In this document: positions 1,495 through 42,398 of the stretch, one piece after another
Position numbering within the stretch: the first letter of the stretch is position 1
How the letters are laid out: each line of letters opens with the position of its first letter
Assembly (NCBI RefSeq): GCF_046119375.1
Contig: NW_027362762.1
Coordinates: forward strand, 681,070,001 to 681,134,000
DNA: 64,000 nt
Reading direction: 5' to 3'
Source of the DNA: Phyllobates terribilis
Taxonomy: Eukaryota
Notes under the pieces: generated by a model
The model's input: only the letters and a program-made list of their open reading frames with translations
Told to the model about the DNA's origin: nothing
The model's database searches: none
Translations under genes and position numbers: made by a program

Positions 1495-3860
1495 TGTGAC
1501 GCCCTGCAGCTGCAGGCTGTCACAGAACTCCTTGGTGTTGCACAGATGGGATTCTCCCCAGTGGCCTCAATACATGCAGATACCTCCAACCAATTCCACT
1601 AGATGGAGCCCTGTAAGGTATATATATACTGGGGGGTGGAGTTCAGGAAGTCAGTCAGTGGGAGGCTGTTTATGTGACACGATGCTGCACCACCAGACAA
1701 GCTGAAGTCTGTGTGGCTGAAAGCCAGGCTAGGCCCAAGCTGCGGGCTAGTCTGGCCAGTGAGAGCCTAGAGTGGGCTAGAAGGCAAGGAGAAGAAAAGA
1801 GCCATGAGGGACAGAGGAACCACAGAGAGTTCGTCCCCTGATGCAAGCCGAGGACTGCTCCGCAGCGGTGGCACCCCTGTCTGTTCTTCCTCTGACCCGG
1901 CTGGGTCACCTCTCCCCAGCATCCACCATCCATCTACCCCTACACTGCCCTGAAGCTAGCTCTACCTGTGGAGAGCCACACCATCCCTGCTGCCGTAACA
2001 CCAGCTCCAGAGGACTGCTCCGCAGCGGCGGCTCCCTTTGGTCGCATTCCACAGGTGGCGTCACGAACACTTGAAATCCCTTATAAATACCCCCCTTTTT
2101 ACTGACCGCCCTGGGTCACGGACCGGGCCAGCTACCGTGATATCTCCCAGCAATCAGAGGCCCGGCTGCCGAGTACCCCACGGCCCAGGGGGCATGTCAG
2201 CTTTGGCGTCACGAACAGGATTGCGTGCCCGTTGCCACTGGGTACTGTGCACCTTAAGGGACTGTAACCCTTACTGTGGTGAATTTTTCCCGCCATTCCT
2301 GAGCTTTCCTCTGCCATTTTTCTTGTTGCCGCGCGGGAAGAAGAGGGGCGTAACCACGAGAATCGGAAAGGCGTAATAGCTGGAAATGTGCGAAACCGAG
2401 GACACGCCCCACCCCTGACGTCGAACCAGTAAGCGTCAGGTCCTGAAAAGAGCCCAGTGGACGCTCTGACGTCAGACGCGAGCGACGCAAGGTCCTGGAA
2501 GAAGACTGTCGCCCGAGGAGCTGCGGCCTACACGACAAAGGGAGTGAAGAAGGTAGGCTCCGTTTCACTAGGGGGGCGCAATCATGGCCGACGACCAGCA
2601 AGCCGCCGGTGCACCGGTTAACGCTCCTGATGCCCAACCTGCACCCGGCGCTGCACAGGCCGGAGCGGCCGCTCCACCAGCAGGGGTCATGACCCCGTTG
2701 ATACCCATGGCTCTGCCGTATGCCCTAGATGTTCAGAGGGTGAAGGAACTTCTGCAGGAGGACACCCTGACTGAACGGGAGGATGACCAGGACGGGTCAC
2801 CTACCTCTCATCCCCAGGCGCATCCCAGGAGGGGGCGCCCTTGAGCTTCTAGTTCCCCGGTAGCTCTCATGCTAAGTATGAGTTAACCTGAACTTGGAGT
2901 CCGTGAACTGTGAACGACCCGCATTGTACATAGTTTGCACCTCCTGAGGTGCCCCTTGGTGGTTTTCACAAGACCACCACCACTAAAACCTGCTTGACAT
3001 GGCCGAACCAGTGGTCCTACACCAGTCCTGCAGCCCCCCCAGGACCTTCGTTGGGGGTTTGGAGCAGGTACCCCACAAGCCAGCTTACCCGGATGAGAGG
3101 GACACACCCGAGGAGGGATCTCATCAAAACTGGTTGCTACAGTAAAGCATAAATAATGTTTATTAAACCTGTCATTTGAACGTTCAAGCTACGTGCCTCC
3201 CATAAAGGGAAGAAAAATTGTAATGTTTAAAAATATGTTATCCTTGTGTTACCTGTTATACAAAAATTTGTTTCAGTCCGGGAGTACTAACTTTTACTAG
3301 GGGGGAATGTGACGCCCTGAAGCTGCAGGCTGTCACAGAACTCCTTGGTGTTGCACAGATGGGATTCTCCCCAGTGGCCTCAATGCATGCAGACAACTCC
3401 ACCCAAGTCCACTAGATGGAGCCCTGTCAGGTATATATATATACTGGGGGGTGGAGTTCAGGAAGTCAGTCAGTGGGAAGCTGTTTATGTGACATGATAC
3501 TGCAGCACCAGACAAGCTGAAGTCTGTGTGGCTGAAAGCCAGGCTAGGCCCAAGCTGCGGGCTAGTCTGGCCAGTGAGAGCCTAGAGTGGGCTAGAAGGC
3601 AAGGAGAAGAAAAGAGCCATGAGGGACAGAGGAACCACAGAGAGTTCGTCCCCTGAAGCAAGCCGAGGACTGCTCCGCAGCGGCGGCACCACTTAGCCGC
3701 ATTCCACAGGTGGCGTCACGAACTTTCCAAAAAACCCATATAAATAGAAATCCCCCTTTTTACTGACCGCCCTGGGTCACGGACCGGGCCGGCTACCATG
3801 ATATCCCCCAGCAAATAGAGGCCCGGTCGCCGAGTACCCCACGGCCCAGGGGGCGCGTCA
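1495..3860 (+). mobile_element. Internally deleted non-autonomous Gypsy LTR element (element 1)
   Basis: LTRs 1495-2199 and 3308-3860; perfect TSD CATT; PBS 2204-2222; PPT 3296-3307; the first ~46 gag codons (MADDQQAAGAPVNAPDAQ, ATG 2584) match the Gypsy A gag at 32795, then jump to the 3' region. Confidence 0.85.
2204..2222 (+). promoter_or_regulatory. Primer-binding site, tRNA-Ser(CGA) type
   Basis: TGGCGTCACGAACAGGATT just after the LTR end; complementary to the 3' end of a vertebrate tRNA-Ser-CGA as recalled (...ATCCTGTTCGTGACG-CCA). Confidence 0.8.
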
Positions 3861-4017: not shown

Positions 4018-5262
4018 TGTGGCGCCCCTGAGGGTTCAGTCGCCACAGAGGTACTGCACCTCACCCAGAGGTGTGGTGTCTCCCTTGTCTCAGGTAAAGA
4101 GGGAGTGCTGCCCGGAACCCCAACACCCACATTCAACACTACACTGCTCCAGGCCGGCTGGAAGGGCAAGATGCATGTGCACAGTGCTGAGCCCTGTCCC
4201 TGGCTGGAGTGGGGGAACCCAAAGGTAGTGGGAACCAGTAGTGGATGTGGGTGGAGGAAGAAGTTTAGGGGAGCACCATTGTAGGAGATATAAAAAGGGA
4301 AGCCATCTTAGGGTGGCAGAGCAGTCAGTGAGAGGAGAGAGTGAAGACAGTCAGGGAGCTGAGTCTCTTAGGAGCTCTGCTCCACAAGTAGGGCCTAGGG
4401 CTAGAGGGGAGCAGAGGAGGAAGGTTCCGATCTATAGAAGGGATCCCAGGGGGTACGGCGAGTGCAGGACGGCACCCGTACGCCCCGAATCTGTCAGAAG
4501 ACAGAGGGATCAGGCTGCAAGAAGGGGACCGGCCCCTGGACCAGCCGTGTTACTCCAGGTTCAGGCTGGAAAAACCGGAGGCTTCTGGCTTTTATAGTTC
4601 AATTGCCAAAGCCTCATTCTAATCTCCGTGAGGGTCAAGCAGGTCCGGGAACTCCAGTTAGACAGGAGGGACTTCAGAGCACCCGAGCGAGACTGTGAGT
4701 GGGGAAGCGCAGGGCAGGAGGGAGAAGACCCAGCGTGACGTCGGTCTAGAGAGGAACACCAGAAAGCGGGGTTCCGTTAGGTGCTTTTAACATACCTGAG
4801 GAAGAGCTGAACCCCCGGTCTGGTGAACGCAGTGCGACGTGGGAGGCTGGAACCCGCGCAGTGTATCAGTGGAACGAACATGAGAACTGTGAGTAAAGAC
4901 TCGGATGACTGCACCGCACTGCCTCAGTCCATTATTTTAGCTGCGCCATCTTTCCCCCTGCACTACAACGCCCCGCGCAACCAATTATATCTACACTGCC
5001 CTGGAGCTAGCTCTTACTGTGGAGAGCCACACCATCCCTACTGCAGCACCATCAGCTTCAGAGGACTGCTCCGCAGCGGCGGCTCCCTTTGGCTGCATTC
5101 TACAGGTGGCGTCACAAACCTTATAAATCCCCTATCAATAGAGAAACTTCCCCTTTTTATTGACCGCCCTGGGCCACGCACCGGGCCAGCCACCGTGATA
5201 TCCCCCACCATCGTCCATAGGCCCGGCTGCCGAGTAACCCCCACGGCCCAGGGGGCGCGTCA
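4018..5262 (+). mobile_element. Solo LTR of the same Gypsy superfamily (1245 bp)
   Basis: TGTGGCGCCC...GGGCGCGTCA; TSD GCTA/ACTA; TATA-like ATATAAAA near 4288; AGTAAA near 4892; U5 homologous to element 1 LTR. Confidence 0.8.
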
Positions 5263-6216: not shown

Positions 6217-6867
6217 TGACGTGCCCCCTGGGACCGTGGGGTACTCGGTAGCCGGGCCGGTCGGTTCTATTGGGGTAGTCACAGTGGCAGTGACCCGGTC
6301 CGTGGCCCAGGGCGGTCAAATAAAGTAAAGTGTCAATTGGGGAACAAAGTGTTTGGGAATAAGTTTGTGACACCGCCCGTGGTGTGCAGCTATATGTGGC
6401 CGCCGCTGCTATTCAGAACCACTGGGGCTGTTGGTAAGCAAAGATGGTTCAGCTCTCCACGGGCAGAGCTAGGCCTCAGGGCAGTTTATAGTACTTGATG
6501 AGGTAGATGTTGTTGGTGTAGTGCAAGGCAGATGGCGCGGCAATTAATCAAGGACACAGTGGGGTGCAGTCTTCAAGTATTTACTCACAGTTATCAAGAT
6601 GCTCCAGGTTACAACCGGCGTATTATAACCGCCCACATCGTCCTGTGTCCTCGGGGGAGGTGATCCAGCCAACTCTCAGATAACTTAGGTGCACTTGAAC
6701 GGGACCCCTTTCTTGTGTACCTTTCCAGGTCGTCTCTCTCTGCGCTGGCTCTCGCCCTCCTGTCCTGCGCCTCACACACAGTGGCCTTGTTGGGCAACGT
6801 CCTTTCTGTCTCCTTTGTCCTGTATGGCCACCTTTTCAGTGAATGTGTGTGGATTTTGGCTATAACA
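6217..6867 (-). mobile_element. Degenerate LTR (solo or fragment)
   Basis: 6217-6385 is the reverse complement of the shared U5 end (hairpin module and degenerate PBS-like site). Right boundary uncertain; no TSD found. Confidence 0.5.
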
Positions 6868-10800: not shown

Positions 10801-13800
10801 AGTCAATAATGATGGGAAATGATTGTCACATAGAATGAAAGACACACGGCAGCTTGTTCTAGATGACATCTCCTTCTACTTACTGGAGAAGCAGTGGGTA
10901 TCCTCCTCGGATTCAAGTTGAGGAACATACAGAGGCTCCTGACTTAGAAGGGTCTCAAAGTCTAAGTCACTCATGTATGGATGAATCTTGATCTCAATTG
11001 CTCCTCCTGGAAAAGACAGACAAGAAAATAGTGATACAGACATTGCTAGAAAGATGTGAAGGACATATACTGAAAGTCAGAGCGTGAAGAAAAGGCTTGA
11101 TATTAGGTTAGGGTCTCATCAAAGAAAACGTACGCTTGTCACAGCTGATGGGCTATGATGAATTTTCCCATTTATGCACCTAAGTACCTTCATTTTTATA
11201 AGTATATTCCATATAGCATTGCTGCAGTTAAATTTCACATATTCTATGTTCACCTACGCACCTGTTCACACTAGCTTTATTCTGTTTGGAGGTGCTGGGC
11301 AGTTTTTTGTTTTGTGTTTTTTATATATACACTCATTATCATAATATAGTTATACATAACTTCACTGCTGCTCTGGCTAACTATAATCTATATAGTGTGT
11401 TGCTGTGTATATACTTTATCATATATTATAAGGTTATCCAAACCTCTGTGTAGGATTACACTATATCATTACATACAGCTTCACTAGAGTCCACACCATA
11501 TAATATATAGTATATACACATCTCCACGTTATAGGGTTATAAACATCTCTGGAGTGGAGTTGCTGTGTATAACTATATAGTGTGTAGATGTGTATATACT
11601 ATAGATCATATAATGTGGGCTACAGTGGAGGTATGTTTATCTATATACTACGGTGCCATGTATATACTATATACTGAGGAGTCCAGGGGAGCTGTGTATA
11701 ACCATATATATATAACTCTATACTGTATAGAGTAAACTCCATAGGAGCTGCTCCACTGGATTCCACACTGTATACTATATAGTATATATATATATAACAA
11801 AACACTATATACTAAACAGTTCTATATAGCTCCAGACCAGCATTGTACACCTATATATTTTGATGCTTTGTATATACTATGATCTATAGTATATGCACAG
11901 CACCATTATATATAGTTATACATATACTAATTACACATATAAATCTCTATGTGGAGCCTGAAAAAAAGCGCATGTAAAAAAAGCTGTTGCCTTTTAAGCG
12001 CAGAATCATTGCTTTTCTGTACTATAAAAAACACTAAAAACTCTGCTTCCCATCTGCACCAAATAAATAAAGGGGAGAAAGCATAAAAGAGGCAGCAAAA
12101 ATGCAATAATCAAAGAAAATTGTTGTTGCTTATTGTGGTGCAGATACCTGTAGAAAATGTGCTTAAAAAATGCTGCAGAAAAAATGAAGCATTGGGGAAA
12201 AAAATAAATGATGTCATTATTTTAGGCCATTTACTGATCACTTTAAAGTTCTGTTCAATGTATTACGCACGGATTGTTACAATTACAGAGTTACCAAATT
12301 TGTCTGTCATTTGATGATTTGTTTCCTTTTTTTAGATGAATTAAAAATGTTATTATTTTAACTGTTTTTCATTATTTTTTTAGTAACATTATGGGAAGAA
12401 AAAATGTTTGACTTTTATTTTACCTGTAGAATACCGGTAGATAGAAAGGCACTAGTATATAGAGATGTATCTCTATGTGCCATTACAAGATGAACATGAT
12501 AAATTTATCTGGTCAGAGAGATGTAATATTTCAATACTAATACTATTATATATATTACCTGTCCCAAGTCTATGTGCTGGATTTTTTCTCAGCAGGTCAG
12601 TGATGAAATCATGAGCATCGGGTGGAATAGAGTAAAAATGAAGTTTCCAGGTTATGTCCTCTGTTGAGTAAAAATCAAATATTACAAAATATAAAATGTC
12701 TCCATTTACATTAAAAAAAACGTTTAGCTTAACACAAGTATCCAAACCAATGAACTGATGCATCCAAATAACAATGAGATCACATAGCATTCAGATTATT
12801 TTACATACCCTTGAGGATCCTGTAGAAAGTCTCATATCTGGTGGGCCCTTCAAAAGGCAAACGTCCTACAAGAAATTGATATAGGATGACACCTATTGAC
12901 CACCAGTCAACAGGCCTTCCATAGCCGTCCCTTAAGATGACTTCTGGCGCAATGTAAGAAACGGTGCCAACAATCTAGAAACCAACACAAGAATAAGATG
13001 ATGATCAGTGAAAATAATTGTGATAAATAATATCAGTGAAAATGTTTTCTAGAAAATATCAGGATAGCAGAAATAGATGTGAACTGCAAAGAGCAAGTTC
13101 CTATATATAAAGCTGACCTCATCATCAAGGAACTCTCGTGTGATGTCTTCAATTGGAGCCTTGTAGATGTTCGATGTTGGTCTCATGAGGCCGACTTTTG
13201 AAAGCCCAAAATCGGTGACTTTAATATGACCAGATGATGTTATCAGGAGGCTGTGAAAGAAAAGATGGTGTCAGTCCCAAGTAATATCCCATAGATTATA
13301 ACAAAATATAACTTTCTTCCCCTTATTATACTACAAGGGTCACTTACTTTTCAGGCTTCAGGTCTCTGTGCACCACACCATAGCTGTGCAGGTATTCCAC
13401 AGCTAGAACCGTTTCTGCGATGTACATACGGGCCAAGGTGACAGGTAAAGGACCATTGGACTTTAGAAAACTGCCACAGTCTCCTCCTACAGGGGAAAGA
13501 TAATATGACAGGAGAGGGTTTGTTACAATGTAGATCACACAGGGTGATTGTGAATGACAACTACGCTGAGACATTGGAGCAAGGCGCCATACATAGAGAT
13601 ATAGTGTATAATGCAGAGTGTACACCGTATACTCAATGTGTGACCCCCAGGCTTCATTTACATGCCTCTTATTTATTTCCCAGTTATGCAGTGTATTATA
13701 ATAAAGTCAAATCCTCTTACAGGGATAAATGATTTTTCAGCATTTGGTAATAGGTAACTTCTAGTAAATGCAGTGAGGACATGTAACCGTCCATGCAGAC

Positions 13801-16800
13801 ACATTCAGATTATGTATAAGGTTCTAGGAGATAAGCAGACATGGGCTGGATAGAGATACAATGTATATGACCTACCTGCTACATAGTCCATGACCATACA
13901 CAGATGATGTTTAGTTGGAAAGGAGCAGAACATGGAGGCCACAAAGGGACAATCGGCGAATATTAGGATGTCCCTCTCTAGAAAGGCCAGTTCAAGTCTT
14001 TCTGGATTTCTCAGGTTCTGCTTGTCCAATTTCTTCATAGCCAATATCTGGTTGGTGTCCTTATGGCGAACTAAGTGGACGGCCCTGGAGAGGAGGAAAA
14101 TCCATGATTTATAAAGAATTCTTACTACCAATCTGTCCATGGATCTCATCATATTATCTTCAATTAATGATTAATGCTATGTCCATCACTAGAAATCCAT
14201 AAATGATCACCTATGTGAGGTCCTCATACATGTCACATCCTACCTGACCTTAATAGTGACAATTAGATGTGGCCAGTGATGTGGACTTATAATTTCTCTA
14301 TGATAACGCTGTATTGACAGGGCACAGAGAAGAGAGATCGTCATATGGAAAGCTGTAAAATATACATTATGCCAAAATTAAACTCACCCAAAGGATCCAC
14401 TGCTGATCAGTTTGATGGGATCATAGTCGCTCTTACACGGCTTTCTCACTGGGGATGACCCAATCAAGGCCTAAAAGGAATAAGAAATTACACTTAGACA
14501 TAGAAGATGCTGGAAAATAAAAGCTTCAGATGCAGGAACGATATTATGCTGATTACACTGCAGCCGATGTAGAGGACGTGATACAAGCCGGACCCTCCAC
14601 TGACACTATTATATTATAGGGGACATCCTCCATACACAGAAATCATTGTACTGCAGGGGATGGTAGGGGATATCATAGGAGGCAGGTATAAAACTGCCAT
14701 CATCACACACAATAGGTCTGATCTACATTAACAATAGGGATATCCCATTGTCATATTGGGCATAAGATGGGATGTAATTCATACCCCGTTATCTGATGAT
14801 ATACAGACGTCTCCCTCTGATACTTACACTGGTAGATTCGTGGATGATCTCTGGGGTCTCACACACTCCACCATCAGTATTTGCCGGCACAGTTATATCT
14901 AAAGAAATGAAGAGACGTCATGTATTAGACTATATCAGCACTTACTATATAACACATCACTATAAAGAAATGACAAACTGTCTATAATGGTATAATACTA
15001 GGTATATGGATATTCTGTACATATTGTTTATATCTATGGCAAATCTATAGATATATATTCTGTACATACTGTATATATCTATGGCACATCTATAGATAGA
15101 TATTCTGTACATACTGTATATATCTATGGCACATCTATAGATAGATATTCTGTACATACTGTATATATCTGTGACACATCTATAGATATATATTCTATAC
15201 ATACTGTATATATCTATGACACATCTATAGATAGATATTCTGTACATACTGTATATATCTATGGCACATCTATAGATATATATCCTGTACATACTGTATA
15301 TATCTATGACACATCTATAGATATATATTCTATACATACTGTATATATCTATGGCACATCTATAGATAGATATTCTGTACATACTGTATATATCTGTGAC
15401 ACATCTATAGATATATATTCTATACATACTGTATATATCTATGACACATCTATAGATAGATATTCTGTACATACTGTATATATCTATGGCACATCTATAG
15501 ATATATATTCTGTACATACTGTATATATCTATGACACATCTATAGATATATATTCTGTACATACTGTATATATCTATGGCACATCTATTGATAGATATTC
15601 TGTACTATAAATATGTTATTGTTCAGGATCTGATCAAATCCTCCACAATTATATGAATGGGACCCTATAAGCTTCTATATACATTTAGGAGCTGAGAAAA
15701 GCTCGGATGAGAGATTCAGAATTACATGAGCCCCCTGTAATATAGTCTATAGTGGGCTCAGGAGCCATCGCTGGTTTTCATACAGAGAATGTAGAGTAAA
15801 TCTCCATATTCTCTGGTGTCTTCTGTGATATTTAGATGAGTGTAAGAACATTGGATGATCGGCTTACCTTCAATCAGATCAATGTGTCGCCCACACTGAC
15901 TGGAATCAATATCAGGGAAGCTGAGGTCTTGCTCCTCTTCAGAGTCACTTTCTGAAGTTTCCTGATGGTCATAAAATATACAATTAATATAATATTTCAC
16001 AAATACTAAATTACCATATGCATAAGGCAGGAAGAACAGAACGTGGATTTACAAGATAATTTCACCGCTTAGTACAGACCGTCATCATAAATGATGGAGC
16101 CGCAGAGACATAAAATCTCCTGTGTCTGCCTGGTGGTGACAGGGAAGCCCCTAAAATCATAAATCTGACCATCTGCTATATGGGTGGTCATCTGGAGAAG
16201 ATCAGAAAAGAAGAAGATGATGGACACTTACCGAGCTTTCCAGTGAGTGGGCCGGATACTCAAGTATAAACAGGACATTTTGGGCCAGTTGGTTTAAAAA
16301 GGCCAATTCTCCACTTTGGGATTTTTCTTCAGCCTATAAAGATGAAGATAAAGAAGAAAGGAAAATCATGAGAAAAAGTGCACAATGGAGGAGGCCATTT
16401 TATGTCACCATGTTACTTCTGCTATCTGCAACTACAATTACTAAATATTGGGTATAGGTCATATATTATTACATATTGTATATCACACACATATTGTGTG
16501 TATATATATATTTATATATATAATTCTTTACATGTCAGGTTACCAGTTGTCCCCGTTTCTTCTTTTTTACTACCTGCCGATCTCCGGCATTTCCTCGTGC
16601 TGCTCCATACACCATACATATACATATGTGATGCCATCCTTGTTTGCCCACATTTGTGTGTGGTCATGAAGGGCACAGAAAATCAGTGTAGCAGAGCACT
16701 GCTAGATATAAAATCTGCAATAGGCATCCTTTATAGTGCGGAAATTAGAATAACGTCTACTAAAGTGTACAGCAGACTACATTGTGTATAAGGAGTGTGA

Positions 16801-20560: not shown

Positions 20561-21126
20561 TGGGTCGCATTATAATAATATTGCCCCCTGTGCCTACTTA
20601 TAATTTTGTAGGAAAGTGGGGGGTGCGTCTTATAGTCTGAATACTAGCCATAGTATATACTATATAATGTGGATGGTGGCGGGTGTGTGTGTGTGGGGGG
20701 AGGGTTTGGGGAGTGGCAGTGGGGGATGAGTGGGGCACAGGAGGAAGCTGGCGCCTGCTGCAGCCTACCCTGTGCCTACTGCTAAAGAAAATTAATATTC
20801 ACTACTCCCCACGCCCATAGGCGTAGATATCAATGAATATTCATTTTCCTCAATAGCGCGCACACTATAGACGCACCGCGGCTCCTGCTGTGCTCGGCGG
20901 TCGGTGTGCCCACTATTAAAGCCCATGAATATTTACTGCAACTCACTCCCATAGGTTTTAGTGAACATTCATGGTCTTTAATAGTGGGCATTTTTGAAAA
21001 AACTATCGCACTTTCCTGATGTTGGTTCGTGCCCAGTTAAGGTACCAAGCCCATTATAAGTCTATAATAACCCGGCACTCAGACTTTAGTTACATTTTCT
21101 TGATTTTTAATGAAGTTTAATACAAT

Positions 21127-21166
21127 GTACAAACGTTTCGGTCACTCAGGACCTTCATCAGGGTCC
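21127..21166 (-). ncRNA. Minimal type I hammerhead ribozyme (3' pLTR copy, stem I mismatched)
   Basis: CTGATGA-A-GGTC-ctgagt-GACC-GAAACGTT on the minus strand; stem I GGACC/TGTAC has two mismatches. Confidence 0.65.
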
Positions 21167-24087
21167 TAAAACAACAAAAATAATATAGATAACAATCAGT
21201 ATATGGTCACAGAGGTTAAGGAAAAATAGCCAATATTTACAAAATATATATGACATGTAGTTTATGTCAATTGAGAACTACCTGTCATGGGAGGGTCAGG
21301 GAAGGAGGGGCAGGAGGCATGAGGTGGATGTCCCATAAAAGAAAGAAAAAAGAAAGCATATCAGTATATGTGTAAGGTTTTCATAAGGTGAACAGAAGCC
21401 ACCAAGGAGGCTGTGAAAAAAGAGGGTATTGTTAAGGAAAGACACTGATAGCCGCTGCAACCAAACAAGGGTCAGTGGTGGACACATACCTTGTGTAGAT
21501 GCATGCGCTGTATGACGCTCTGGGAACGCGGTATTCACCACTTGTTCCTGTGATGTGCGGTGTGCAGAGAATGTGAATAAGCCTTTTATAGGCTGTGGGT
21601 GGGTCCTATATGGATACACTAGACATTGGTGGTAGTGGGACGCCGAAAATGCGCGTTGTTGAAGGACCTGCCGGACCAGAAATGACGCGGCGGACGCATC
21701 ATCAGGTCCTGTGACTAGGCGGCGGTCACGTTGGCGGAAGTGATGTACCACTTGCGTTCCATTTCGGAGGCTTTGCGTTCCACTGCGCGGCTGGTGTGAA
21801 TGGCTGGCTATTACAGGGGATATTACAAGAGTGTTGCACATAGGAGAAAAAGAATCCAGAGTAGGGACATCAGGAGGGATCAGGGAAGAAGGCTGGGATC
21901 TAGGAAGGATTCTGGGGAATAAGAAAAAAACGTTAGAATATGTACAGAAATGCATATGTCAAAATCTAAATACTGTATATGAAAGACACTATTGAATATA
22001 TATAGAGTTTATACAGACATATTCTTGATGAGACACATATTGTACATAAGACAAAAATAAATGTAAAACAGACGATCCCATACCTAGTCAAGACGTGGCA
22101 GGTGCTGGAAATCTCATGTGTGGGGACCAAAATTAATACGGGTTCAACATCAGGTTTATGATATTGTTTATTTACGGGATATTGTTTAGGTAAAAGACAG
22201 AAGGTCATATTCTCGGTTCAGTCCTCTAGGTGTAAGCGATTGTAGTTTGTGAATACAATAGGCTTCACGGCATTTAAGCATACATATACTGTCTCCCCCT
22301 CGGCGTGGTAACGGTACGTGGTCCATAACCTGGAATTTAAGTTGTGCAACTGTATGGCCGGCTGATGTGAAATGATTGGGCAAAGGCAATAGTAAGTTCT
22401 TATGACGCGCCCCTGGGCCTGCTGTGTCGTGCGGCATCGCGCACACGGGGGCTTACCCGGAGCCGGATCAGATGGGGGTAGTAGTCTCGTGGCGGTGACC
22501 CGGTCCGTGCCCAGGGAGTCAAACTGGACGGCAGTCTATTAGCAGTAGATGTTGTACGACTACGCCACCCGTTGAATGCAGCTATGAGGCTGCCGCTGCA
22601 GGACAGTCCGCTGAGGCCGGTGATATGATTGTGCAGCGTAGATGGTATAACCCCCAACGGGAGGGGTATGGCCTCAGGGCAGCAGATGTAGATGATGGAG
22701 GAAGTGATAGTGCAGCAAGGAGACTCAGACACGTATGATGCAGTTTCAGGGTGTTTACTCACTGATGTTGCTTTAGTCTCTTCGGCCGGGAGTGACCACC
22801 CGAGCCGTACTGCGTTCACCAGGTGCGGGACTCGGCTAACCCCCAGGCAATTCCGGAGCGTGGTCCTGAGCTTCCCTCTCACTCTCTTTCTCCTGGCCGT
22901 CCCCACCAGGGATCCACCTTTGTCCGGTTCCCTTGGGCCTTCTATGGTAAAACCTTCTCCGGCTTTCCTGACCCTACTCTTGGTGTACCTTCCTGGTGGA
23001 TGTGGTGAGGGTCGTGGCAAAACTTAACCACGACCTCCGGTTCCTGGTTAAGGGTTACTTTTGCCTCCGCCAGCTTGGGATCCGGTGCCCTCTTCTGCCA
23101 ACCCTTCACCCTTATTGGTTTGCTTCTGGGATCTTAGGGTTCCCTCTTTCTGCGTCTCTGGGCCTTCCTTCTTCCTCTCCACTACAAGCCTGGCCCTGGA
23201 GCTGGGCCCAGCCGGAGCCACAGCTCCCTGTCAGCCCTCCTGGCTGAGCTCCTCTGCTCTGCTTCTCCTCAGACTGAACTCGACCCTGTCCTAAGATGGT
23301 GCCCACCATATATACTCCCTCTATGTGTGAGCCCAGGTGACCAGCACCCAATGGGCTCCTAGCTTTACCCAGAGTACTCCCCCTATCTGCCCCTACACTA
23401 CTGGGATGTTCCACCCCCCCTCCCACTCCAGCCAGGGACAGACGCTGTCGTACCTGCACATCTATTTGGTGGGAGTACCGTAGTTCTGTCCCCCGGAAAT
23501 GGTATGTATGTAGTGCATGCAGCCTACTGAGCTCAGTCCCACACTCCATCCTTATCCGGGAGTGGAATACCATACCTCTGGTTTGAGGTGCAATACCCCT
23601 GCAGCAGCCGAGTCCTCAGGGTGCTACATTCCCCCCTGGTAAATCACAGCACGTCCTCGGGCTGTAAAAGAGCAAAACAATATAAAACATACAAACTTTT
23701 GCAAAACATACACCAACATATAAAACATTATAACCATTATCAGATTCTAGCAATATAAACTTTTTCATATAAAACTCTTTTTTTATATAAAATGTTCTTG
23801 AGTTTCTGGCCACTGTGCACTTGTGACCAGGTAAAAGTGCAACAGTACAAAAACAGTTCCTTATAAAACCGGTAGGGGGCGCTTTAGGAAGCGCAACTAT
23901 ATACAGGATATGGCCGCTCTCAGTCCTCGGCCAGTGGGGATAAGGGATGGCTGTTCACAGTCCTCAGCCTGGGTAGGGATAGGGACACACGGGTAACAGT
24001 TTGCTGGTCCCAACGGGGACTATACTTTACTGGTAACAGTTCTTGTACCCTTACGGGTAACTATTTACAGTTTCACTGTACCGTACT

Positions 24088-25689
24088 TTAATAACGGCAT
24101 CCTCCTGCTCCTCCTTGAGGGTAATCTTCAGACCCGTCCGGGTCCTCTTGACCTTCCTCAAACCGCAGCTCTTCCTCAGTCAGTGGGTGCACATGAAGAG
24201 CATATGGTCCCTTAGCACACTGATGCCGGGTGAAGGTGACCTCATCACCCAGGTAAAGATCACGTCCTCTGTGTCCCTCCGGCAGATGGCTCTCGACGTC
24301 CCTGCGGGTGACAAAGACGTCGCCGGGGGTTCTGTGGTCCCGGATAAAACCCCAACCGTGCTGCAGTTGAAACTTGATTACGGTCCCGGTGGCGCGGGGA
24401 CCATGGGCTGCACGGGGGTTTCGCCTGGTCCAGCTCTTCTGTTCCGCACTCTGTACCTGCAGCCGCTCCTCGCGGACCCGCCTCTCTCGCCGTTCCCGGT
24501 CGAAGACCTCCAGCTGTTGCCGGCAGCACTCTGCTCGCTGGGCTGCGGCCGCCCGGGTCTCATGGGTGAACCCAATGAGGTTTTCTCCGGTGGGGTCCCA
24601 TTCGAATTGGGCCTCCTCCAACGGGAGCGGGACGATCTTGACAGGCGCCGGAGCCGGAATCAGGGGCTCACACAGAGGCCTTTCCTTCCGGAGTCGGGGA
24701 TGGAGGTACTCCGGTGGCCACTCAAAGGGCTGCCCATCCGGGCAAGTGTGCTGGGCGAACAGGTCTTCACCCAAGGGTAGGACTTTGTGGGTTGAGGGCG
24801 CGGTGGTGGCAGCGGCGCCCGGGTTCACCAGGCCTTGCGACCAGGCCGGTGGCACTCTAAAGGTAAAGGGCACTGTGGAGACGGCGGCGCCCGGGGGTAC
24901 TCGGCCCTGCGACCAGGCCGGTGGCGTCTCCTGCTTGGCCGTGCTCGGGGTTGAGGCGCGTGTCGTCACAGGGGGCGTGGTCGCGGCTCCTGCTTGAGGC
25001 CTAGTCTGGAGCGGTGGTGGTGCAGCGACAGGCACGGTAGGGGGAATTTCGGGCTCTGCGACGGGGAGCTGGGGCAGGCTCACGGTTTCTAGGCTTGGGG
25101 TAGTGACGTCCCCTTTACCTGCCTCCGTCTCTTCAGCTCCTTCCACGGCGTCGTCTCCGGCCTTCATTCCTCCTGCACCATCCTCAGAGGCGGTCAGACT
25201 CCTCGTCTCGGGTGGCGTGCTCCGCTGGCGGGTTCCAGCCTGCTGGGCCATCTCCCTACTCCACTCAGTCAGCGTTTCTCGCTGCACCTGGGCCATCCTC
25301 CGTGCGAGGCCCTCCAGCGCGGTCTGTGCACGCTCCCGGTCTCGGGGGAGCTGTGCCAAGATCTCCACCAGGTCTTGTGGGGTGGTGGCTTGCAACAGGC
25401 TCCTGACCACAGGGTCGGTGCTGCCTGACTCTCCCTCCATCTCCGGGTGCGAACTCTCCAGACTCCTCCAGGCTGCACCCATCCTCTCTCTTTTGTTCTT
25501 GATCCGCCCACTTTTTTGGTGGTCCCGGGGCAACTTGGTGATTGTCAGTTCCAGGGGCAGCCCCCCCACGCTGATGGACATCTCTACCATTGTAGTCTCT
25601 GCTGGTGGGGGCGGTCTCCGCTTTTGGCGCTCTTCTGGGACCTGGCCCACGATGGGAGGTGGCCTCTTGCCACCCTCTGGCACGCCCAT
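24088..25689 (-). CDS. 533-aa protein: helical N-terminal block, Pro/Ala/Thr-rich linker, conserved unknown domain, charged helix, C-terminal cold-shock (OB-fold) domain, acidic tail
   Basis: Intact ORF; GTVIKFQLQHGWGFI (RNP1-like)...DVFVTRRDV (RNP2-like)...LYLGDEVTF...KGPYALHV follows the canonical CSD pattern. The true start may be a downstream ATG. Confidence 0.85.
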   Translation of the reverse strand: MGVPEGGKRPPPIVGQVPEERQKRRPPPPAETTMVEMSISVGGLPLELTITKLPRDHQKSGRIKNKRERMGAAWRSLESSHPEMEGESGSTDPVVRSLLQATTPQDLVEILAQLPRDRERAQTALEGLARRMAQVQRETLTEWSREMAQQAGTRQRSTPPETRSLTASEDGAGGMKAGDDAVEGAEETEAGKGDVTTPSLETVSLPQLPVAEPEIPPTVPVAAPPPLQTRPQAGAATTPPVTTRASTPSTAKQETPPAWSQGRVPPGAAVSTVPFTFRVPPAWSQGLVNPGAAATTAPSTHKVLPLGEDLFAQHTCPDGQPFEWPPEYLHPRLRKERPLCEPLIPAPAPVKIVPLPLEEAQFEWDPTGENLIGFTHETRAAAAQRAECCRQQLEVFDRERRERRVREERLQVQSAEQKSWTRRNPRAAHGPRATGTVIKFQLQHGWGFIRDHRTPGDVFVTRRDVESHLPEGHRGRDLYLGDEVTFTRHQCAKGPYALHVHPLTEEELRFEEGQEDPDGSEDYPQGGAGGCRY

Positions 25690-25923
25690 AATGGCGTCCG
25701 CTCTGCCAGGGCGGGAAATCGTCTCAGATGGCGGGAATCATCTCCCAATGGCGGGAAACTCTGTGGATGGCGGGAAAAGACTGCAGATGGCGGGCAAACG
25801 GCGGGAAACGATCCGAGATGGCGTCCGATGGCGGGGACCCTCCGGAACCGGCGGGAGACTTCTTCTTACGGTACAGATAAACTTTTCTTCAGGCACGCAG
25901 TACCCGGTGGTAGCGGGCACGTG

Positions 25924-25941
25924 ATCCTGCCGACTACGCCA
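25924..25941 (-). promoter_or_regulatory. PBS, tRNA-Ser(AGA/TGA) type
   Basis: TGGCGTAGTCGGCAGGAT on the minus strand; complementary to tRNA-Ser ...ATCCTGCCGACTACG-CCA as recalled. Confidence 0.85.
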
Positions 25942-28336
25942 AAGTTGACGCGCCCCTGGGCCTGCTGTGTCGTGCGGCATCGCGCACACGGGGGCTTACC
26001 CGGAGCCGGATCAGATGGGGGTAGTAGTCTCGTGGCGGTGACCCGGTCCGTGCCCAGGGAGTCAAACTGGACGGCAGTCTATTAGCAGTAGATGTTGTAC
26101 GACAACGCCACCCGTTGAATGCAGCTATGAGGCTGCCGCTGCAGGACAGTCCGCTGAGGCCGGTGATATGATTGTGCAGCGTAGATGGTATAACCCCCAA
26201 CGGGAGGGGTATGGCCTCAGGGCAGCAGATGTAGATGATGGAGGAAGTGATAGTGCAGCAAGGAGACTCAGACACGTATGATGCAGTTTCAGGGTGTTTA
26301 CTCACTGATGTTGCTTTAGTCACTTTGGCTGGGAGTGACCACCCGAGCCGTACTGCGTTCACCAGGTGCGGGACTCGGCTAACCCCCAGGCAATTCCGGA
26401 GCGTGGTCCTGAGCTTCCCTCTCACTCTCTTTCTCCTGGCCGTCCCCACCAGGGATCCACCTTTGTCCGGTTCCCTTGGGCCTTCTATGGTAAAACCTTC
26501 TCCGGCTTTCCTGACCCTACTCTTGGTGTACCTTCCTGGTGGATGTGGTGAGGGTCGTGGCAAAACTTAACCACGACCTCCGGTTCCTGGTTAAGGGTTA
26601 CTTTTGCCTCCGCCAGCTTGGGATCCGGTGCCCTCTTCTGCCAACCCTTCACCCTTATTGGTTTGCTTCTGGGATCTTAGGGTTCCCTCTTTCTGCGTCT
26701 CTGGGCCTTCCTTCTTCCTCTCCACTACAAGCCTGGCCCTGGAGCTGGGCCCAGCCGGAGCCACAGCTCCCTGTCAGCCCTCCTGGCTGAGCTCCTCTGC
26801 TCTGCTTCTCCTCAGACTGAACTCGACCCTGTCCTAAGATGGTGCCCACCATATATACTCCCTCTATGTGTGAGCCCAGGTGACCAGCACCCAATGGGCT
26901 CCTAGCTTTACCCAGAGTACTCCTCCTATCTGCCCCTACACTACTGGGATGTTCCACCCCCCCTCCCACTCCAGCCAGGGACAGACGCTGTCGTACCTGC
27001 ACATCTATTTGGTGGGAGTACCGTAGTTCTGTCCCCCGGAAATGGTATGTATGTAGTGCATGCAGCCTACTGAGCTCAGTCCCACACTCCATCCTTACCC
27101 GGGAGTGGAATACCACACCTCTGGTTTGAGGTGCAATACCCCTGTAGCAGCCGAGTCCTCAGGGTGCTACACTTACAGTGTATAGTAGATTTATGTTTTG
27201 ATATACGATCTTTAATGGGTTGTGTAGTATCTCCAATGTAAATGAGTCCGCATGGGCATTTGATTAGATAAATCACAAAGGTGGATTTGCACGTGTAATA
27301 GTCCTTAATTTGGTATTGTTTACCTGAATGTGGGTGGTAAAATGTATTACCTCTGGTGACATTGTTACACTGGTAACATTGTAGACATGGAAATGTGCCG
27401 GTTTTCGGATTTGAGAGAAATCTTTGTCTGGGTAAGGTATTGGTTGTTCCAAAATCAGCTCGGATGAGTTGATCCCTGATGTTCGGGGCTCTCTTAAAGC
27501 AAGGTAAGAAGGGGCCATTGAATTCTGGTACAGAGGGATATGCAGTTTGTAGTATTTTCCAATGTTGTCGGATTTTTTTATGAAGAATGAGTACCGCCGG
27601 ATGGTAAGTATGAACAAAAGGAATGCGGTTAGAGGCGGTGGGGGGCGAACGTTGGCCCTAGGTTGTAAGAATTTTTTTTAAAAGATCGGGGTGGGGTGGG
27701 GTATCCATGTTCCTCAAACTGCATTTCTTTAAGACTGAGGTCACACATGGTTGCGTCACTGACTATCCGTTTAACACAATGGAATTGTGACTTCGGGATT
27801 GAGGAAATCGTGGATTTGGGGTGTAAGCTGTCGAAACGGAGTAATCCGTTCCGGTCAGTAGGTTTGACATAAAGGTCAGTGGAGAGTATCCCCTCCTGGT
27901 TCTTAATAACCCTAGTGTCTAGGAAGTTGATGGAAACAAAATCTGAGGAGATCGTGAATTTGAGTCCCTCTCATGCTGAGTTGATACTGTTGAAAAATTA
28001 TTTGAGTGACTCAACCAAGCCCCCCCATATGCCCTTCTTTGGTTGCAGCGGCTATCAGTGTCTTTCCTTAACAATACCCTCTTTTTTCACAGCCTCCTTG
28101 GTGGCCTCTGTCCACCTTATGAAAACCTTACACATATACTGGTATGTTCTCTTTTTTCTTTCTTTTATGGGACATCCACCTCATGCCTCCTGCCCCTTCT
28201 TCCCTGACCCTCCCATGACAGGTAGTTCTCAACTGACATAAACTACATGTCATATATATTTTGTAAATATTGGCTAATTTTCCTTAACCTCTGTGACCAT
28301 ATACTGATTGTTATCCATGTTATTTTTGTTGTTTTA

Positions 28337-28376
28337 GTACACTGATGAAGGTCCTGAGTGACCGAAACGTTTGTAC
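28337..28376 (+). ncRNA. Minimal type I hammerhead ribozyme (inverted pLTR copy, intact stems)
   Basis: GTACA-CTGATGA-A-GGTC-ctgagt-GACC-GAAAC-GTT-TGTAC: stems I and II perfect, palindromic AACGTT stem III as in dimeric PLE hammerheads. Confidence 0.75.
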
Positions 28377-29448
28377 ATTGCATTAAACTTCATTAAAAAT
28401 CAAGAAAATGTAACTAAAGTCTTAGAGTGCCAGGTTATTATAGACTTTTAATAGCGGGCACACTGACCGCAGAGCGGGAGCAGGAGCCGCGCTGCTGCTA
28501 CAGTGTGTGCTCTATTGGAGAGTGAATGGTCACTGCTCCCCAAGCACACAGTCCTGGCGCGGGGAGCAGTGACTATTCTGGCACAGCACTTTACTGTGTG
28601 AGGGCGCATGGCAGGGATGCTATGCACGCCCTGCCATGCGCGGCTCACAAAGTGAGAGTGTCGGCAGCAGAGCGGAACCCTCTGGAGGAGAGAGTAGGTG
28701 AGTATAACTATTTTTGTGTGCACAGTGTGATGTTTATCAGGGGGGCCATGCATTACCAGGATTGGGATCAGAGGGGCCATGCATAACAGCATGGGGATCA
28801 GGGGTGCCATGAATACCAGGATGGGGATCAAGGGGTGCCATGCATACCAGGATGGGGACCAGGGGTGCCTTGCATACCAGGATGGGGACCAGGGGTGCCA
28901 TGCATATAGGGATGGGGGCCACGTATAACAAGAAGGAGGAGGACATATATACCAAAATAGGGGATATTAACAGTATTGGGGGACATTACCCCTATAACAG
29001 TGTCAGCAGCAGACCCCCTCCCCATTAACCGTGCATCATGACCACAGTTTTTGCTCATTTTTTTTCCTCCTCTAAAACCTAGGTGCGTCTTATGGTCCGG
29101 TGCTTCTTATAGTCTGAAAAATATGGTAATAATAATAATAATAATAATAAAAAAAGTACCGCCCTATAAAAGTAATAGAAATCTCTTGGCCTCCTTATTA
29201 AAATAATTGTGCCCCTGGGGCCTCCTTATAGTAATATCAAGGCCCCCTGGTCCTCTGTTTAACGATAATAGTGCCCACACTGCCTTCTAATAATAATAAC
29301 AGTGCCCCCTGGTCCTCTTTATAATAGTATTTGCATATCTTGAGCCTCTTTCTAATAACATTAGTGTCCTCCTTGGGATTTCTGAAATAACAATGTTACC
29401 CCCCTGGGCCTCCATACAATAATATTATTGCCCTTATTGATCTCCTTA

Positions 29449-29629: not shown

Positions 29630-32600
29630 TACTGGAAAGCGAGCACTAAAATGCTCAGGAATTCTTTGTTCGAGTCGAGCAAATTGGAATGCTCGAGTGC
29701 TCGGACCCAGTACTGAGCCCAATGTAAGTCTATGGGAAACTCGAGCATTTTTCAGGCGGCTCCCCCCGGCGGTCTGCAGAGGGCCTAAAAATTGCTCAAA
29801 TGACATGGGAACAGCATGGCGAAGACCTATGGAAGCATCTCTGACTCCCAATCACTGCTGTCAACAATGTTGTCAGAGTATTGCGCCACTTTTACGGACT
29901 CACAATAAAACATACAAAAACGAAACCAAAATGCATATTCCTGGGAAAAATGTTAAGCAACATCCTTTCCAGGGTAATGGGTAATAACTTTATATAAGGC
30001 AAAATAAATAACCAAAAACAAAAATGCTCCTCCACACCTTGGACTATGTTCACACATAGTGTTTTTGATGCATTTTTGCACTTTTGCATTGCTTTCAACG
30101 GTGAAAAAACATTTACCAGTAAATTTCATTTTAACATTTTACTACCTTATCTGGCTATGTGGTGTATGACACAATATCGGACACATCCTGTTTCATTTAT
30201 GATGGAGGGACTCTGAAACTCACAAAGAATATTTTTATAGGGCCATCAGGCGGCCCTTACTATTCTTAAAGGGCCAGCAGTCGGCTATGCTTTGTTGTTC
30301 CCATTATTAACGACTGGGTCTCAAAAAACTGTTATTGCGTATGCAGTGACTGTAATGTCTTCCAAAAGTTTGGAAGAACTTCAATGCCCCTTGAAAGAGA
30401 CGTAGGAGTCGGACGGCCTCCTGAGAATAATGTTCCCATTATTAGGAAGTGTGTCTCCCATACTGTTTGCCTATGCAGTGAAGAAATGGTTGCCAAAAAT
30501 TTGGAGAAACTCCAGTGCCAGTTGCAAGAGACGTAGAGGTTGGAGGGCCTACGGCAAAAAATGCTCCCATTATTAGGAAATATGTCACCCATAATGTTTG
30601 CCAGGCAGTAAAGCAACAGCTGCCAAAGATTTGGAGGAACTCCAATGCACCTTGCAAGAGACGTAGAGGTTGGAGGGCCACCTGCAAAAAAAGCTCCCAT
30701 TATTAGGAATTGTGTCCCCCATCTTGTTTGCCTAGGTAGTGAAGCAACGACTGCCAAAAATATGGAGGAACTCCAATGCCCCTTGCTAGAGATGTAGAGG
30801 TAAGAGAACCTCCTGAAAACAATGTTCCCATTATTAGGAAGTGGGTCTCCCATACTGTTTGCCTATGTAATTAAGCAATGGCTGCCAAAAATTTGGAGGA
30901 ACTTCAGTGCTCCTTGCAAGAGACGTACAGTTCGGTGGGCCTCCAGCAAAAAATTCTTCAATTATTAGGAAGTGTGTCTCCCATACTATTTGCCAAGCAC
31001 TAAAGCAAAGGCTGCCAAAGATTTGGAGGAGCTCCAATGCCCCTTGAAAAAGACATAGAGGTCGGAGGGCCTCCTGCAAAAAATGCTTCTATTATTAGGA
31101 AGTGTGTGTCCCATACTGTTTGCCAAGCAGTAAAGCAAAGGCTGCCAAAGATTTGGAGGAACTCCAATGCCCCTTGAAAAAGACACAGGTCGGAGGGCCT
31201 CCTGCAAAAAATGCTTCTATTATTAGGAAGTGTGTCTCCCATATTGTTTGCCAAGCAGTAAAGCAAAGGCTGCCAAAGACTTGGAGGAACTCCAATGCCC
31301 CTTAAAAAAGAAACAGGTCGGAGGGCCTCCTGCAAAAAATGCTACTGTGGCACCCTGCAGTGCACAGGTACCACAGTACCCAGGGTGCATGGACGGACTT
31401 CTCCACAAGAGGCCCTCACTACATACAAACACCTCCACCCTTCCACCTCACACCACCAGAGGGAGCCCGTTAGGGATATATATATGGAGGGTGCAGGCAG
31501 TCAGTCAGAAGAGAGAGGCAGTCAGACAGAGTCAGAGAGTCTGAGAGCGTGCTGACGCTGAGAGCAGCGAAGACGCAGCGGGTCTGCTTCAGAGTTTTGA
31601 GGGCCCCGAGTGTGGCCGAAGGCAAGAGGAGAAAGGAGAGAGGGGTTTAGGGGGCAGAGGAGCATAATAGGCTCACCCCAGTATACAAACCGGACACCGG
31701 GTCCACGCCTACTGGGTCCCTTTATACCCAGTAGGGATCACCGGCATTGCAGGAGGACTACAAGTCCCTGGACGACCTGAAGCTAGACCCACACAGGACC
31801 AGGAACCACGAAGGCCCCGACGACCTGGGATAGTGGTTGCCAGCAGAAGGTCCTACTACCGAGCGACAGGTGAAGGAACAGCACGACACATAAGCTAGGC
31901 CCAGTTGCAGGCTGGCCAGGAGCATACAGAGAGGCAGACACGGACCAGGAGGCCTTATACCCGCTCACTGGGGAGAAGTCCTGAAGTGCACCCATCCTAC
32001 TGAGTACCCTGGACCGTACCTGACATCCGCACCAGTAAAGTTATTGAAGCGAATCCCCTGTCTCTGTCAGTTACTCCTGCTGCGCCATCCGCCTGCACTT
32101 CAAGTCCCAGCATCACCACCATCAAACTCCACACAGCCCCGGGGGCCCGCTCCACCTGTGGGGAGCAGAAACACCTCAGCTGCCATCCCATCACCCCCCG
32201 GAGGTCTGCAGCAGCGCTGGTAAACCTTACCAGGTACCACACGTGGCGTCACAAACTATTTACTTTATTTTTATTTTTTATCCAAGTTACAATCCCCCTT
32301 TTTGGTTGACCGCCCTGGGTCACGGACCGGGCCAGCCACCGTGATATCCCCCACCAGCATCCATAGGCCCGGCTGTCGAGTACCCCACAGCCCTGGGGGC
32401 GCGTCAACTTCTGGCGTCAGAAACAGGTTTCTGTGCCCGTTGCCACCGGGTACTGTGCGCCTTAACAGACTGTAACACTTACTGTGAAGATTTCCCGCCA
32501 TTCCCGAGGTTTCCCGCCATTATCCGCCATTTTCCTGTCGCCGCGCGGGAAGAAGAGGGGCGTAACCGTGGGAATCAGAGAGGCGTGACCGCTGGAAGTG

Positions 32601-35075: not shown

Positions 35076-36390
35076 TGTGGCACGCCAGGTCTGGTCGCCA
35101 CAGTGGCAGCAATGTCATGTCTGAGAGCAGATGGGAGGTTCCCTGGTTGGGGACAATTAGCATGCAGCACCTCCTGCCTCAGTCCAGGGAGGGGAGAAAC
35201 CTGCCCTTTAACCCCGCCCCAGATCCAGTTTATAGAGAGACAGGTTCCAGACAAGTTCCTGGCAAGGTTCCAGTGAAGTTGCAGATAGGGACAGGTCAGC
35301 AGCATGCTGAGGAGTCCCTGTAGGCAGAGGAGGAACACGAGGCCAGGAGGGGAGCTAACAGAGCTCGTCCTGGCTAGAGACTTACAAAGCCGGACACTGG
35401 AGTCCGAGGCTGTGAGGGTTATAAGCCCAGCAGCAGAAAACCACCACGCAGGGGACTTCAAGTCCTCTGGCCCAAGGAAGCCCGGAGGCTCAGCCACATG
35501 AGAGGGACCACTACTGCCCCAGAAGGGTGAGAGGTACGGAAGGCCCGAGTCGCCAGTCATACGGGTGAGAACAACATGGTACACTCAGGGACATGGGCTA
35601 CCACTACACTACAGCGGGATAGCCAAGAAAGAGTGAAGTCAGCACGGTAGGCCTGCAAACTCTCCCTGACCAGTGGAATTTCCCAGTTGCTCTCAGACTG
35701 ACAAGGCCTCCATTGTTAACCTGTATTCCGGACAGGTCCCTTAATACCACCAACAGTAAAGACCCTGAATTGAATGACAGACTCCGTGTGGTTACTGCTG
35801 CTCCCGCACACCATCACCACCAATATCCCCATTTACTGCCTTGAGGCTATACTCCTCCCATGGGAGTTATACTACCCTCTGCTGCACCCACAACACCAGC
35901 CTCAGCAGTCTGCCCTGCAGCGGCGGTTCACTCTGACCGCAATCCACGGGTGGCGTAGTCGGACATTCAGCATATAGACTGCCATTTGGTTTGACTGCCG
36001 TGAGCACGCACCGGGTCCCCGCCACGCAAGGACTACAACCCCCAGCATCTACAAAAGATCCGGTTCCGGGTATCCCCACACACACACGGCCCAGGGGGCG
36101 CGTCAACTTTTGGCGTAGTCGGCAGGATTTCGTGCCCGCCACCAACGGGTACTGCATGCCTGAAGAAAGACTGTAATACTTACCTTGGTGGAGTTTCCCG
36201 CCATCGGGCACCATGCGGGAAGAAGAGAGGCGTGGATGACGAAAGCGCGCGAGAACTGGAGCCCCGCCTTACGCACGGACGCTGCGCAAGGTCCTGAAAG
36301 GAGCCGAGCGGAAGCTGACATCACCAGGACACGACGCAAGGTCCTCAACCCCGATGGTCGCCTGCGGAGCCGCGGCCTACAGAAGAAAAG

Positions 36391-37640: not shown

Positions 37641-37683
37641 AAAGCAACAGAAGGTAGGCCACGGTCGACTAGGGGGGAAGAAG

Positions 37684-41600: not shown

Positions 41601-42398
41601 GACTTAACACGTCAGACGGCCGCCAGTGCCTTTCAGCAGCATTTCTGCCGCCCACACGGGTATCCAGAGCAAGTGTTGACTGATCAAGGTCCAGCGTTCG
41701 AGGCTGAAGTCTTCCAGGAATTCTGCAACCTGTATGGCTGCAAGAAGATAAGGACAACGCCTTACCACCCCCAAACCAACGGGATGTGTGAGAAAATTAA
41801 CCAGGTAGTACTAGACCTGCTCAAGACGTTGCCCCTGGAGGAACGCAGCCTGTGGCCTGAGAAACTGCCGGATCTGGTGGACTTGTATAACCATATCCCA
41901 GTAAATTCTACCAACTACACCCCAGCTTACCTAATGAGAGCAAGACATGGTAAGCTGCCAATTGACCTGGAGATGAGAGTCCTGACACCCGAGGACACCT
42001 CACCAGAAGCAGACTGGGACACAGAACGACAGCAGCAGTACCGGAAAGTACAGGAGAGTGTGGAGCGAAGTCTGTCTCAAGCAAGAGAGGGGCAAGAGAG
42101 GAATTACAACCAGCATGCTCCTGCTGCTCCCCTGGCACCTGGAGAGCAGGTCTTGAAGAGGAAGAGACGGCTCCACAAGTTGGATGACCAGTGGGAGAAA
42201 GACCCGTACACCGTACTGCCCTCAAGCCATGAAAACCCAAAGGTATGTGTTATCATTAAGGATGGAGGAGAGACCACAGCCACTGTCTCCAGAGACCACC
42301 TGAAGAAGTGTCCTGAGCAGCTGCAAAGTGCTGATGAAGACCAAGATAGCCCTCAACCCGCAGAGGAAAGGGAAGAAATGGTCAGTACAGTGCTCTGA
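38640..42398 (+). pseudogene. Gypsy B pol (PR-RT-RNase H-IN), disrupted
   Basis: LLDTSSQVT, SPWAAPLVLV, LYLDDVIVYS, HTDASNVGLG, HHCC, DHYS, TDQG, GMCE; several stops and frameshifts. Confidence 0.92.

Follow-up and report, generated by a model that had tools for sequence, protein, structure and literature searches.

The present picture of primer tRNA loading, retention and release in LTR elements comes from a few yeast, fly and retroviral models. In FIV, U5 makes contact with the 5' end of the primer tRNA, and engineered MLV and HIV vectors carrying two primer-binding sites (PBSs) are said to initiate at both, each site priming often. Drosophila gypsy has two binding sites for tRNA-Lys2, the second being non-priming and of unknown role (PMC1635307), the yeast elements Ty1 and Ty3 use a bipartite PBS (PMC5371799), and in HIV-1 a switch of primer requires U5 motifs, the PAS and an A-rich loop, to be altered along with the PBS (PMC11181671). 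Here we analyze Ty3/Gypsy elements with three sites matching the primer tRNA-Ser: an 18-nt outer PBS, an inner site upstream of it that repeats the match to the tRNA 3' end and, between the two, a loop complementary to the tRNA 5' end. The arrangement is a variant of multipartite primer binding that is new in form and probably functional.

The window, that is, the whole 64-kb stretch of DNA analyzed, is part of contig C2 in an animal genome of 10.6 Gb and is densely packed with Ty3/Gypsy LTR elements nested in one another. These have LTRs of the TG...CA form, a PBS, 4-bp target-site duplications (TSDs) and a PPT, seen as a purine run before the 3' LTRs, and the pol frames of one nested element (38604-42398) follow the Ty3/Gypsy order of protease, RT, RNase H and integrase. 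The Gmr1 clade was rejected on pol order. The gag frame has a weak PNMA match in Pfam (E 1.5e-07), and no solved structure for this gag was found. In its PNMA-like gag and canonical pol order, the element resembles the Barthez-clade Metaviridae, a clade tabled as the PNMA progenitor in PMC3670739. The tRNA-matched sites and the elements carrying them are as follows.

1495-2199, plus strand: 5' LTR of element A (non-autonomous, CGA type), TSD CATT
2056-2068, plus strand: inner site of A, 13 nt complementary to the tRNA-Ser(CGA) 3' end
2102-2199, plus strand: predicted long hairpin ending at the LTR end of A (z -1.4)
2131-2141, plus strand: loop motif of A, complementary to tRNA-Ser(CGA) nucleotides 1-11
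2204-2221, plus strand: outer PBS of A, 18 nt, tRNA-Ser(CGA)
3711-3723, plus strand: inner site in the 3' LTR of A (LTR 3308-3860; loop 3792-3802)
5107-5119, plus strand: inner site in solo LTR B (LTR 4018-5262; loop 5189-5199; AGTAAA at 4892)
6363-6375, minus strand: decayed CGA-type inner site in partial LTR X (loop 6278-6288)
22557-22567, minus strand: AGA-type inner site in the 3' LTR of D (LTR 22403-23628; loop 22481-22493)
25924-25941, minus strand: outer PBS of D, tRNA-Ser(AGA/TGA)
26100-26110, minus strand: AGA-type inner site in the 5' LTR of D, one mismatch (loop 26024-26036)
32244-32256, plus strand: CGA-type inner site in the 5' LTR of E (loop 32335-32345; decayed PBS 32412-32429)
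35951-35962, plus strand: AGA-type inner site in the 5' LTR of F (bulged loop 36021-36036; PBS 36111-36128)
36564-36574, minus strand: AGA-type inner site in solo LTR C (LTR 36391-37640; loop 36476-36486)
37408-42398, plus strand: broken gag (PNMA-like), protease, RT, RNase H and integrase frames of a nested Gypsy element
43994-44005, plus strand: AGA-type inner site in the 3' LTR of F (loop 44064-44079)
51406-51418, plus strand: CGA-type inner site in the 3' LTR of E (loop 51497-51507)
58526-58536, plus strand: AGA-type inner site in the 5' LTR of G (LTR 57426-58702; loop 58607-58622; PBS 58707-58724)
61953-61963, plus strand: AGA-type inner site in the 3' LTR of G (LTR 60853-62129; loop 62034-62049)

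An earlier, sequence-only reading of this DNA had placed CGA-type inner sites, TGGCGTCAC(G/A)AAC, at 2056, 3711, 5107, 32244 and 51406, and AGA/TGA-type inner sites, TGGCGTAGTCG, at 35951, 43994, 58526 and 61953 as well as at 22557-22567 and 36564-36574 on the minus strand; all of them are present. Within the window, the CGA-type pattern matched 7 times at no more than one mismatch, against a chance mean of 0.05, and the AGA-type pattern 10 times, against 0.32. Two further inner sites, absent from that reading, were found on the minus strand at 26100-26110 (one mismatch) and 6363-6375 (decayed, 10/13). The inner-to-outer distances in the window are 148, 168, 160, 169 and 181 nt, and those relatives of solo LTR C that have a PBS use the AGA primer. 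Integration had been assigned to the outer end, and TSDs indeed flank that end, as exact 4-bp repeats in A, C, D and G and with one mismatch each in B and E. In 52/56 family representatives, a poly(A)-type hexamer precedes the inner site by 110-260 nt, compared with 9/56 in a control interval, and from the position of this hexamer the inner site likely lies in U5.

The primers named in that reading, tRNA-Ser CGA and AGA/TGA, were confirmed from host tRNA genes. Six of the 30 tRNA-like loci read are host tRNA-Ser genes (CGA, L007; AGA, L015, L020 and L029; TGA, L016 and L017), and the other 24, also within L001-L030, are LTR junctions with the tRNA copied beyond 18 nt. At these junctions RT had copied past tRNA position 58, in some cases for at least 40 nt, a direct trace of priming at the outer site. 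In the window itself, Rfam gave 0 matches at the gathering score and ARAGORN none.

The window has other contents as well. Its start recurs six more times nearby (C2, 680.7-681.4 Mb) at 97-99% identity, indicating a large tandem or segmental duplication; protein-kinase-like exon fragments at 13344-14170 (minus strand), which we take to resemble MAST kinases, probably belong to this repeated segment. In element A, the LTRs (1495-2199 and 3308-3860) are 96% alike in U3/R and 86% in U5 and differ in their internal deletions, and the element is probably a recombinant. At 1596-1609, in U3 of LTR A, lies a putative CTCF-like motif. CTCF or CRE motifs were rejected as the reason for the inner site, which follows the tRNA, and an HDV-like or other ribozyme was rejected on inspection, there being no room for P3. 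The non-autonomous elements D and G have, in place of gag-pol, an ORF with a cold-shock domain (24088-25737, minus strand, and 60027-60401, plus strand; Pfam CSD, E 1.4e-07 and 2.9e-06), a nucleic-acid chaperone domain, and both elements are young, since their LTR pairs are >99% identical. Element D is enclosed by an element with 420-bp inverted repeats (21053-28452), in which the frame at 27076-27657 is, we assume, GIY-YIG-like. We take the minus-strand segment 45393-48247, inside an integrase region, to be a CR1-like LINE and the minus-strand pieces at 54894-57398 to be from a hAT-like transposase. Satellite arrays of 130 bp occupy 30296-31346 and 51572-54721.

Beyond the window, census loci were picked by outer-PBS patterns, blind to the inner site, and came mostly from the start of contig C1; sampling relied on PBS patterns because random 10-kb stretches gave one junction in 14. 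An inner site matching the 3' end of the element's own tRNA-Ser at 10 or more of 11 nt was present in 145 of the 165 distinct LTR-PBS junctions, the others matching at 9/11 (10 junctions) or at 8 or fewer (9 junctions) or being discordant (1 junction). Control matches were 5-8 of 11 in 164/165 and 161/163. Within each type, column conservation is 0.95-0.97 over inner positions 1-11, compared with 0.52-0.57 in the adjacent linker. As in a PBS, the site consists of 11-13 nt complementary to the tRNA 3' end from CCA, and the match stops sharply, at position 13 in the CGA type and at position 11 in the AGA type, with positions 15-16 matching in 0-4%. The predicted inner duplex reaches about -21 to -23 kcal/mol, against -34 to -37 for the outer PBS (about 60-65%). 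The suggestion that the inner site has a function is supported by its conservation between families together with its tracking of the primer; the site is real, conserved and probably functional. Decay across copies, which had been put forward as a refutation, cannot serve as a test, as inactive copies degenerate at the neutral rate irrespective of the role of the site.

The broader statement that every LTR family carries an inner site held for the LTRs found in the window but failed genome-wide. A distant Gypsy family (L141/L177), with a gag 25% identical, has an AGA PBS and neither inner site nor loop; it supplies two of the nine junctions that match at 8 or fewer positions. It serves as a natural negative control and counts against the module proposed below, as it uses the same primer in the absence of such a module. 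In a search for other primer tRNAs at the same LTR end, nearly all of the 100 matches listed, of 351, were point variants of the two Ser sites. Metagenome relatives (four loci) lacked a Ser PBS, and protein relatives were found, by protein sequence alone, in records from frog, fish, sea cucumber, tick and snail.

The loop between the inner and outer sites is new relative to the earlier reading, which had only these two. It is complementary to tRNA nucleotides 1-11/12, switches with the primer and occupies the predicted apical loop of a long hairpin. In CGA families, it is the contiguous complement of host tRNA nucleotides 1-11 (e.g., 5189-5199) and in one AGA lineage of nucleotides 1-12 (e.g., 36476-36486, minus strand); in the main (largest) AGA lineage, the match is weak, bulged and split by 2-5 nt. 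In an anchored test, run on the very alignment in which the motif had been found by eye, the loop paired better with its own tRNA type in 51/56 rows (one deletion row dropped). Without anchoring, the own tRNA 5' end was best in 43/56 rows and beat all 30 shuffles in 25/56, namely 19/35 in CGA and 6/7 and 0/14 in the AGA groups. For the largest AGA lineage, the loop was no better than shuffles (0/12 below all 30), the own type being better in 7/12. The best-matched 12-nt tRNA window was nucleotides 1-12 in both types (0.81 and 0.68), loop variants retain G-U pairs, and an unanchored 7-mer duplex test was null for CGA (17 versus 18). As in a multipartite PBS, a further region of the primer tRNA thus has its own complementary segment in these elements, although the match is weak in the main AGA lineage. 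Single folds of the hairpin were only mildly stable (z about -1.5), and RNAalifold run on 57 rows returned no common structure and no pairs.

All three complementarities change isoacceptor jointly. With the sites masked and 11 junctions left out, a tree built on the U5 sequences of 56 representatives (inner match of at least 9/11) needs two primer switches, both on starred branches, and one-switch trees appeared in 0/200 bootstraps; since the AU test did not reject a single AGA clade (p 0.14), the number of independent switches is one or two. A leader/ORF tree, with 7 changes, 3 of them forced, is confounded by LTR swapping and long branches and was not relied on. The inner site was altered at 5 positions with each primer switch. 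Covariation of the inner and outer sites by primer isoacceptor, as anticipated from the window, was concordant in the census, the tree and a genome-wide pattern search. With exact patterns, only 8 discordant copies (4 + 4) were found genome-wide, none amplified: 2 mis-primed copies (L271 and L273), 5 inter-family recombinants and 1 rearranged copy. Copies with mismatched inner and outer types have not spread. Furthermore, only the outer PBS is changed in the mis-primed copies; thus, the inner site is not rewritten in each cycle. In L277 and L278, a CGA PBS copy is joined to an AGA-family LTR end through a short shared motif, which suggests that minus strands continue beyond the PBS and enter the U5 of another RNA.

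This evidence bears on whether the inner site is a functionless relic, a former LTR end with its PBS that became enclosed as U5 grew longer. CA plus 2 nt directly precedes the site in 39/56 representatives; in 22 of these 39, the flank agrees with the LTR start in 6-8 of 9 positions, about as well as the true end does in many families; and PBS capture into U5 has been caught in action, with one extended LTR (L208) having passed another cycle. However, a longer duplicated LTR end is not detectable (score of 13.3 versus 13.8 in shuffled sequences), conservation far exceeds that of the adjacent linker, and 5 positions changed per primer switch although single mis-primed copies show no per-cycle rewriting. 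We give little credence to a mere relic: descent from a former LTR end is reasonable, yet it leaves conservation and switching unexplained. The earlier suggestion of a relic LTR end that was kept is therefore plausible for the origin of the site and does not account for its persistence; probably, a former LTR end and its PBS became enclosed in U5 and were then maintained by selection.

As the likeliest of the explanations considered, though with somewhat less than even confidence, we propose that the three tRNA-Ser-matched sites act together as a tRNA-loading module. The loop, displayed by the hairpin, would hold the tRNA 5' strand once the acceptor stem opens. The tRNA 3' end would be either parked on the weak, non-priming inner site or placed on the 18-nt outer PBS for priming, and would be handed over from the inner to the outer site. 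Judging from sequence alone, there may be one tRNA toggling between the sites or two tRNAs in the genome dimer. Among the functions offered earlier for the inner site, that of a second tRNA anchor fits best. In a more specific version, which we regard as rather unlikely, the tRNA 5' end would stay anchored on the U5 loop and the 3' end would shuttle between the PBS and a blocked parking site, with priming on just one of the two RNAs in the dimer; the minus strand could then read through the PBS of the unprimed RNA into its U5, as L277 and L278 suggest.

The same segments could alternatively form an intramolecular RNA switch, in which the inner site pairs with the two halves of the loop, never with tRNA, and masks or frees the loop or the outer PBS. 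Because PBS positions 5-11 have letters in common with the tRNA 5' strand, the loop could pair with tRNA, inner site or PBS. Pairing with the two halves of the loop is possible for inner positions -1 to 4 (92% of cells) and 5-10 (82%), the inner site retains a G at -1 in 53/56 representatives whereas the outer site never does, and the linker, being unstructured, could allow the inner site to come into contact with the loop. A hand-named structure has 82% paired cells and 82 two-sided changes (0/500 shuffles; slid controls, 22-46%), a two-sided-change statistic that is inflated by relatedness. However, the loop halves are in swapped order, with a 0-nt linker in two lineages, which would preclude their simultaneous pairing with one site; both halves in order fit the tRNA only, and their order is explained by the loop being the contiguous complement of tRNA nucleotides 1-11/12. 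Moreover, positions 11-13 of the CGA inner site, kept at 99, 93 and 86%, respectively, have no partner in the loop and are explained by the tRNA 3' strand only. We thus consider an RNA switch unlikely.

The inner site could also act as a decoy, diverting 3' tRNA fragments that would otherwise block the PBS. According to PMC12853362, such fragments act on LTR elements via the PBS, with seed pairing dispensable, and the inner site is present in solo LTRs, too. With predicted binding far weaker than at the PBS, one copy per RNA and the match of the loop to the tRNA 5' end left unexplained, a decoy role appears highly improbable.

The loading module assumes an inner site that does not prime. A further rival is a second working primer site, or a landing site for plus-strand strong-stop DNA; 11 nt are enough as a PBS in Drosophila gypsy (PMC1635307). 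The inner context followed by a full 18-nt PBS was found in 3 copies genome-wide, compared with 46,732 normal junctions, and none of the 30 sequences read of 46 candidates was an LTR truncated at the inner site. Inner-primed products are thus nearly absent, and the inner site does not define an LTR end that yields primed, integrated products, the TSDs lying at the outer end. These counts speak against routine alternative priming, another of the functions offered earlier. In L031, the 5' LTR alone has its inner site converted in register to the full 18 nt copied from the tRNA, as would be expected had priming started at the inner site. In L032 and L033, the stretch between the sites is missing, again in the 5' LTR only, which fits mis-annealing or later deletion equally well. 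Commoner than the inner-primed form is the reverse join, in which the sequence passes from the full PBS to position 19 of the inner site (to within 2 nt wherever this could be checked). It accounts for 15-16 of 17 matches in the AGA type, three being tandem duplicates, and also occurs in L006; in the CGA type there are 27 matches, and of 20 read, 16 follow the LTR end and 0 the inner context. Such in-register junctions, recurring in both types, would arise if plus-strand strong-stop DNA that terminates with the 18 nt copied from the tRNA annealed to the inner-site complement, but they represent errors, not the normal product. We therefore find a priming or landing role distinctly unlikely as the function of the site.

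Three elements have an extended 3' LTR, two of them with a normal 5' LTR and one with both LTRs extended. LTRs lengthened by a trapped full PBS and a second U5 end were observed in L208 with L267-L268 and in L253-L254; among the lengthened LTRs, one element has both LTRs extended, and another LTR has two trapped sites. Given that these U5 duplications, although rare, occur with both primer types, the inner site carries a cost and is nevertheless kept, which argues for function.

The engineered two-PBS MLV/HIV vectors resemble these elements in having two tRNA 3'-end sites per RNA but are artificial, whereas the inner site is natural, conserved and gives almost no primed products. Drosophila gypsy (PMC1635307), also of the Ty3/Gypsy group, likewise has an additional site for its primer tRNA that does not prime. 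There, however, the second site is located close to the 3' end of the genome and is complementary to the anticodon and T stems, whereas here the site, likely in U5, repeats the 3'-end match and a third site, for tRNA nucleotides 1-12, is found. Ty1 and Ty3 (PMC5371799) share with our elements a primer tRNA held, here by prediction, by more than one RNA segment; their segments bind different tRNA arms and their PBS is short, whereas here a full 18-nt PBS is present and two sites would compete for the acceptor 3' end. Furthermore, unlike in the Ty1/Ty3 model, the PBS is rewritten from the tRNA at least sometimes. The loop resembles the extended U5 contacts of retroviruses such as HIV-1, none of which is known to repeat the 3'-end site; the review PMC11181671 holds no passage on a 'second PBS'. 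In a poison-frog TE paper (PMC6278860), a term search found the PBS unmentioned. The literature searched, of limited coverage, contained no account of a repeated 3'-end site with a 5'-end loop in U5.

In practical terms, PBS callers may choose the wrong site in these LTRs. The lengthened LTRs show a route by which LTRs grow and old primer sites become trapped. If a primer tethered to the U5 loop does toggle between the inner site and the PBS, it would constitute a primer-control device without counterpart in the searched literature, in a group with more than 46,000 intact junctions in this genome. The group as a whole provides a natural experiment, with two primers, one or two switches between them, three sites that change together and replication errors preserved in thousands of copies.
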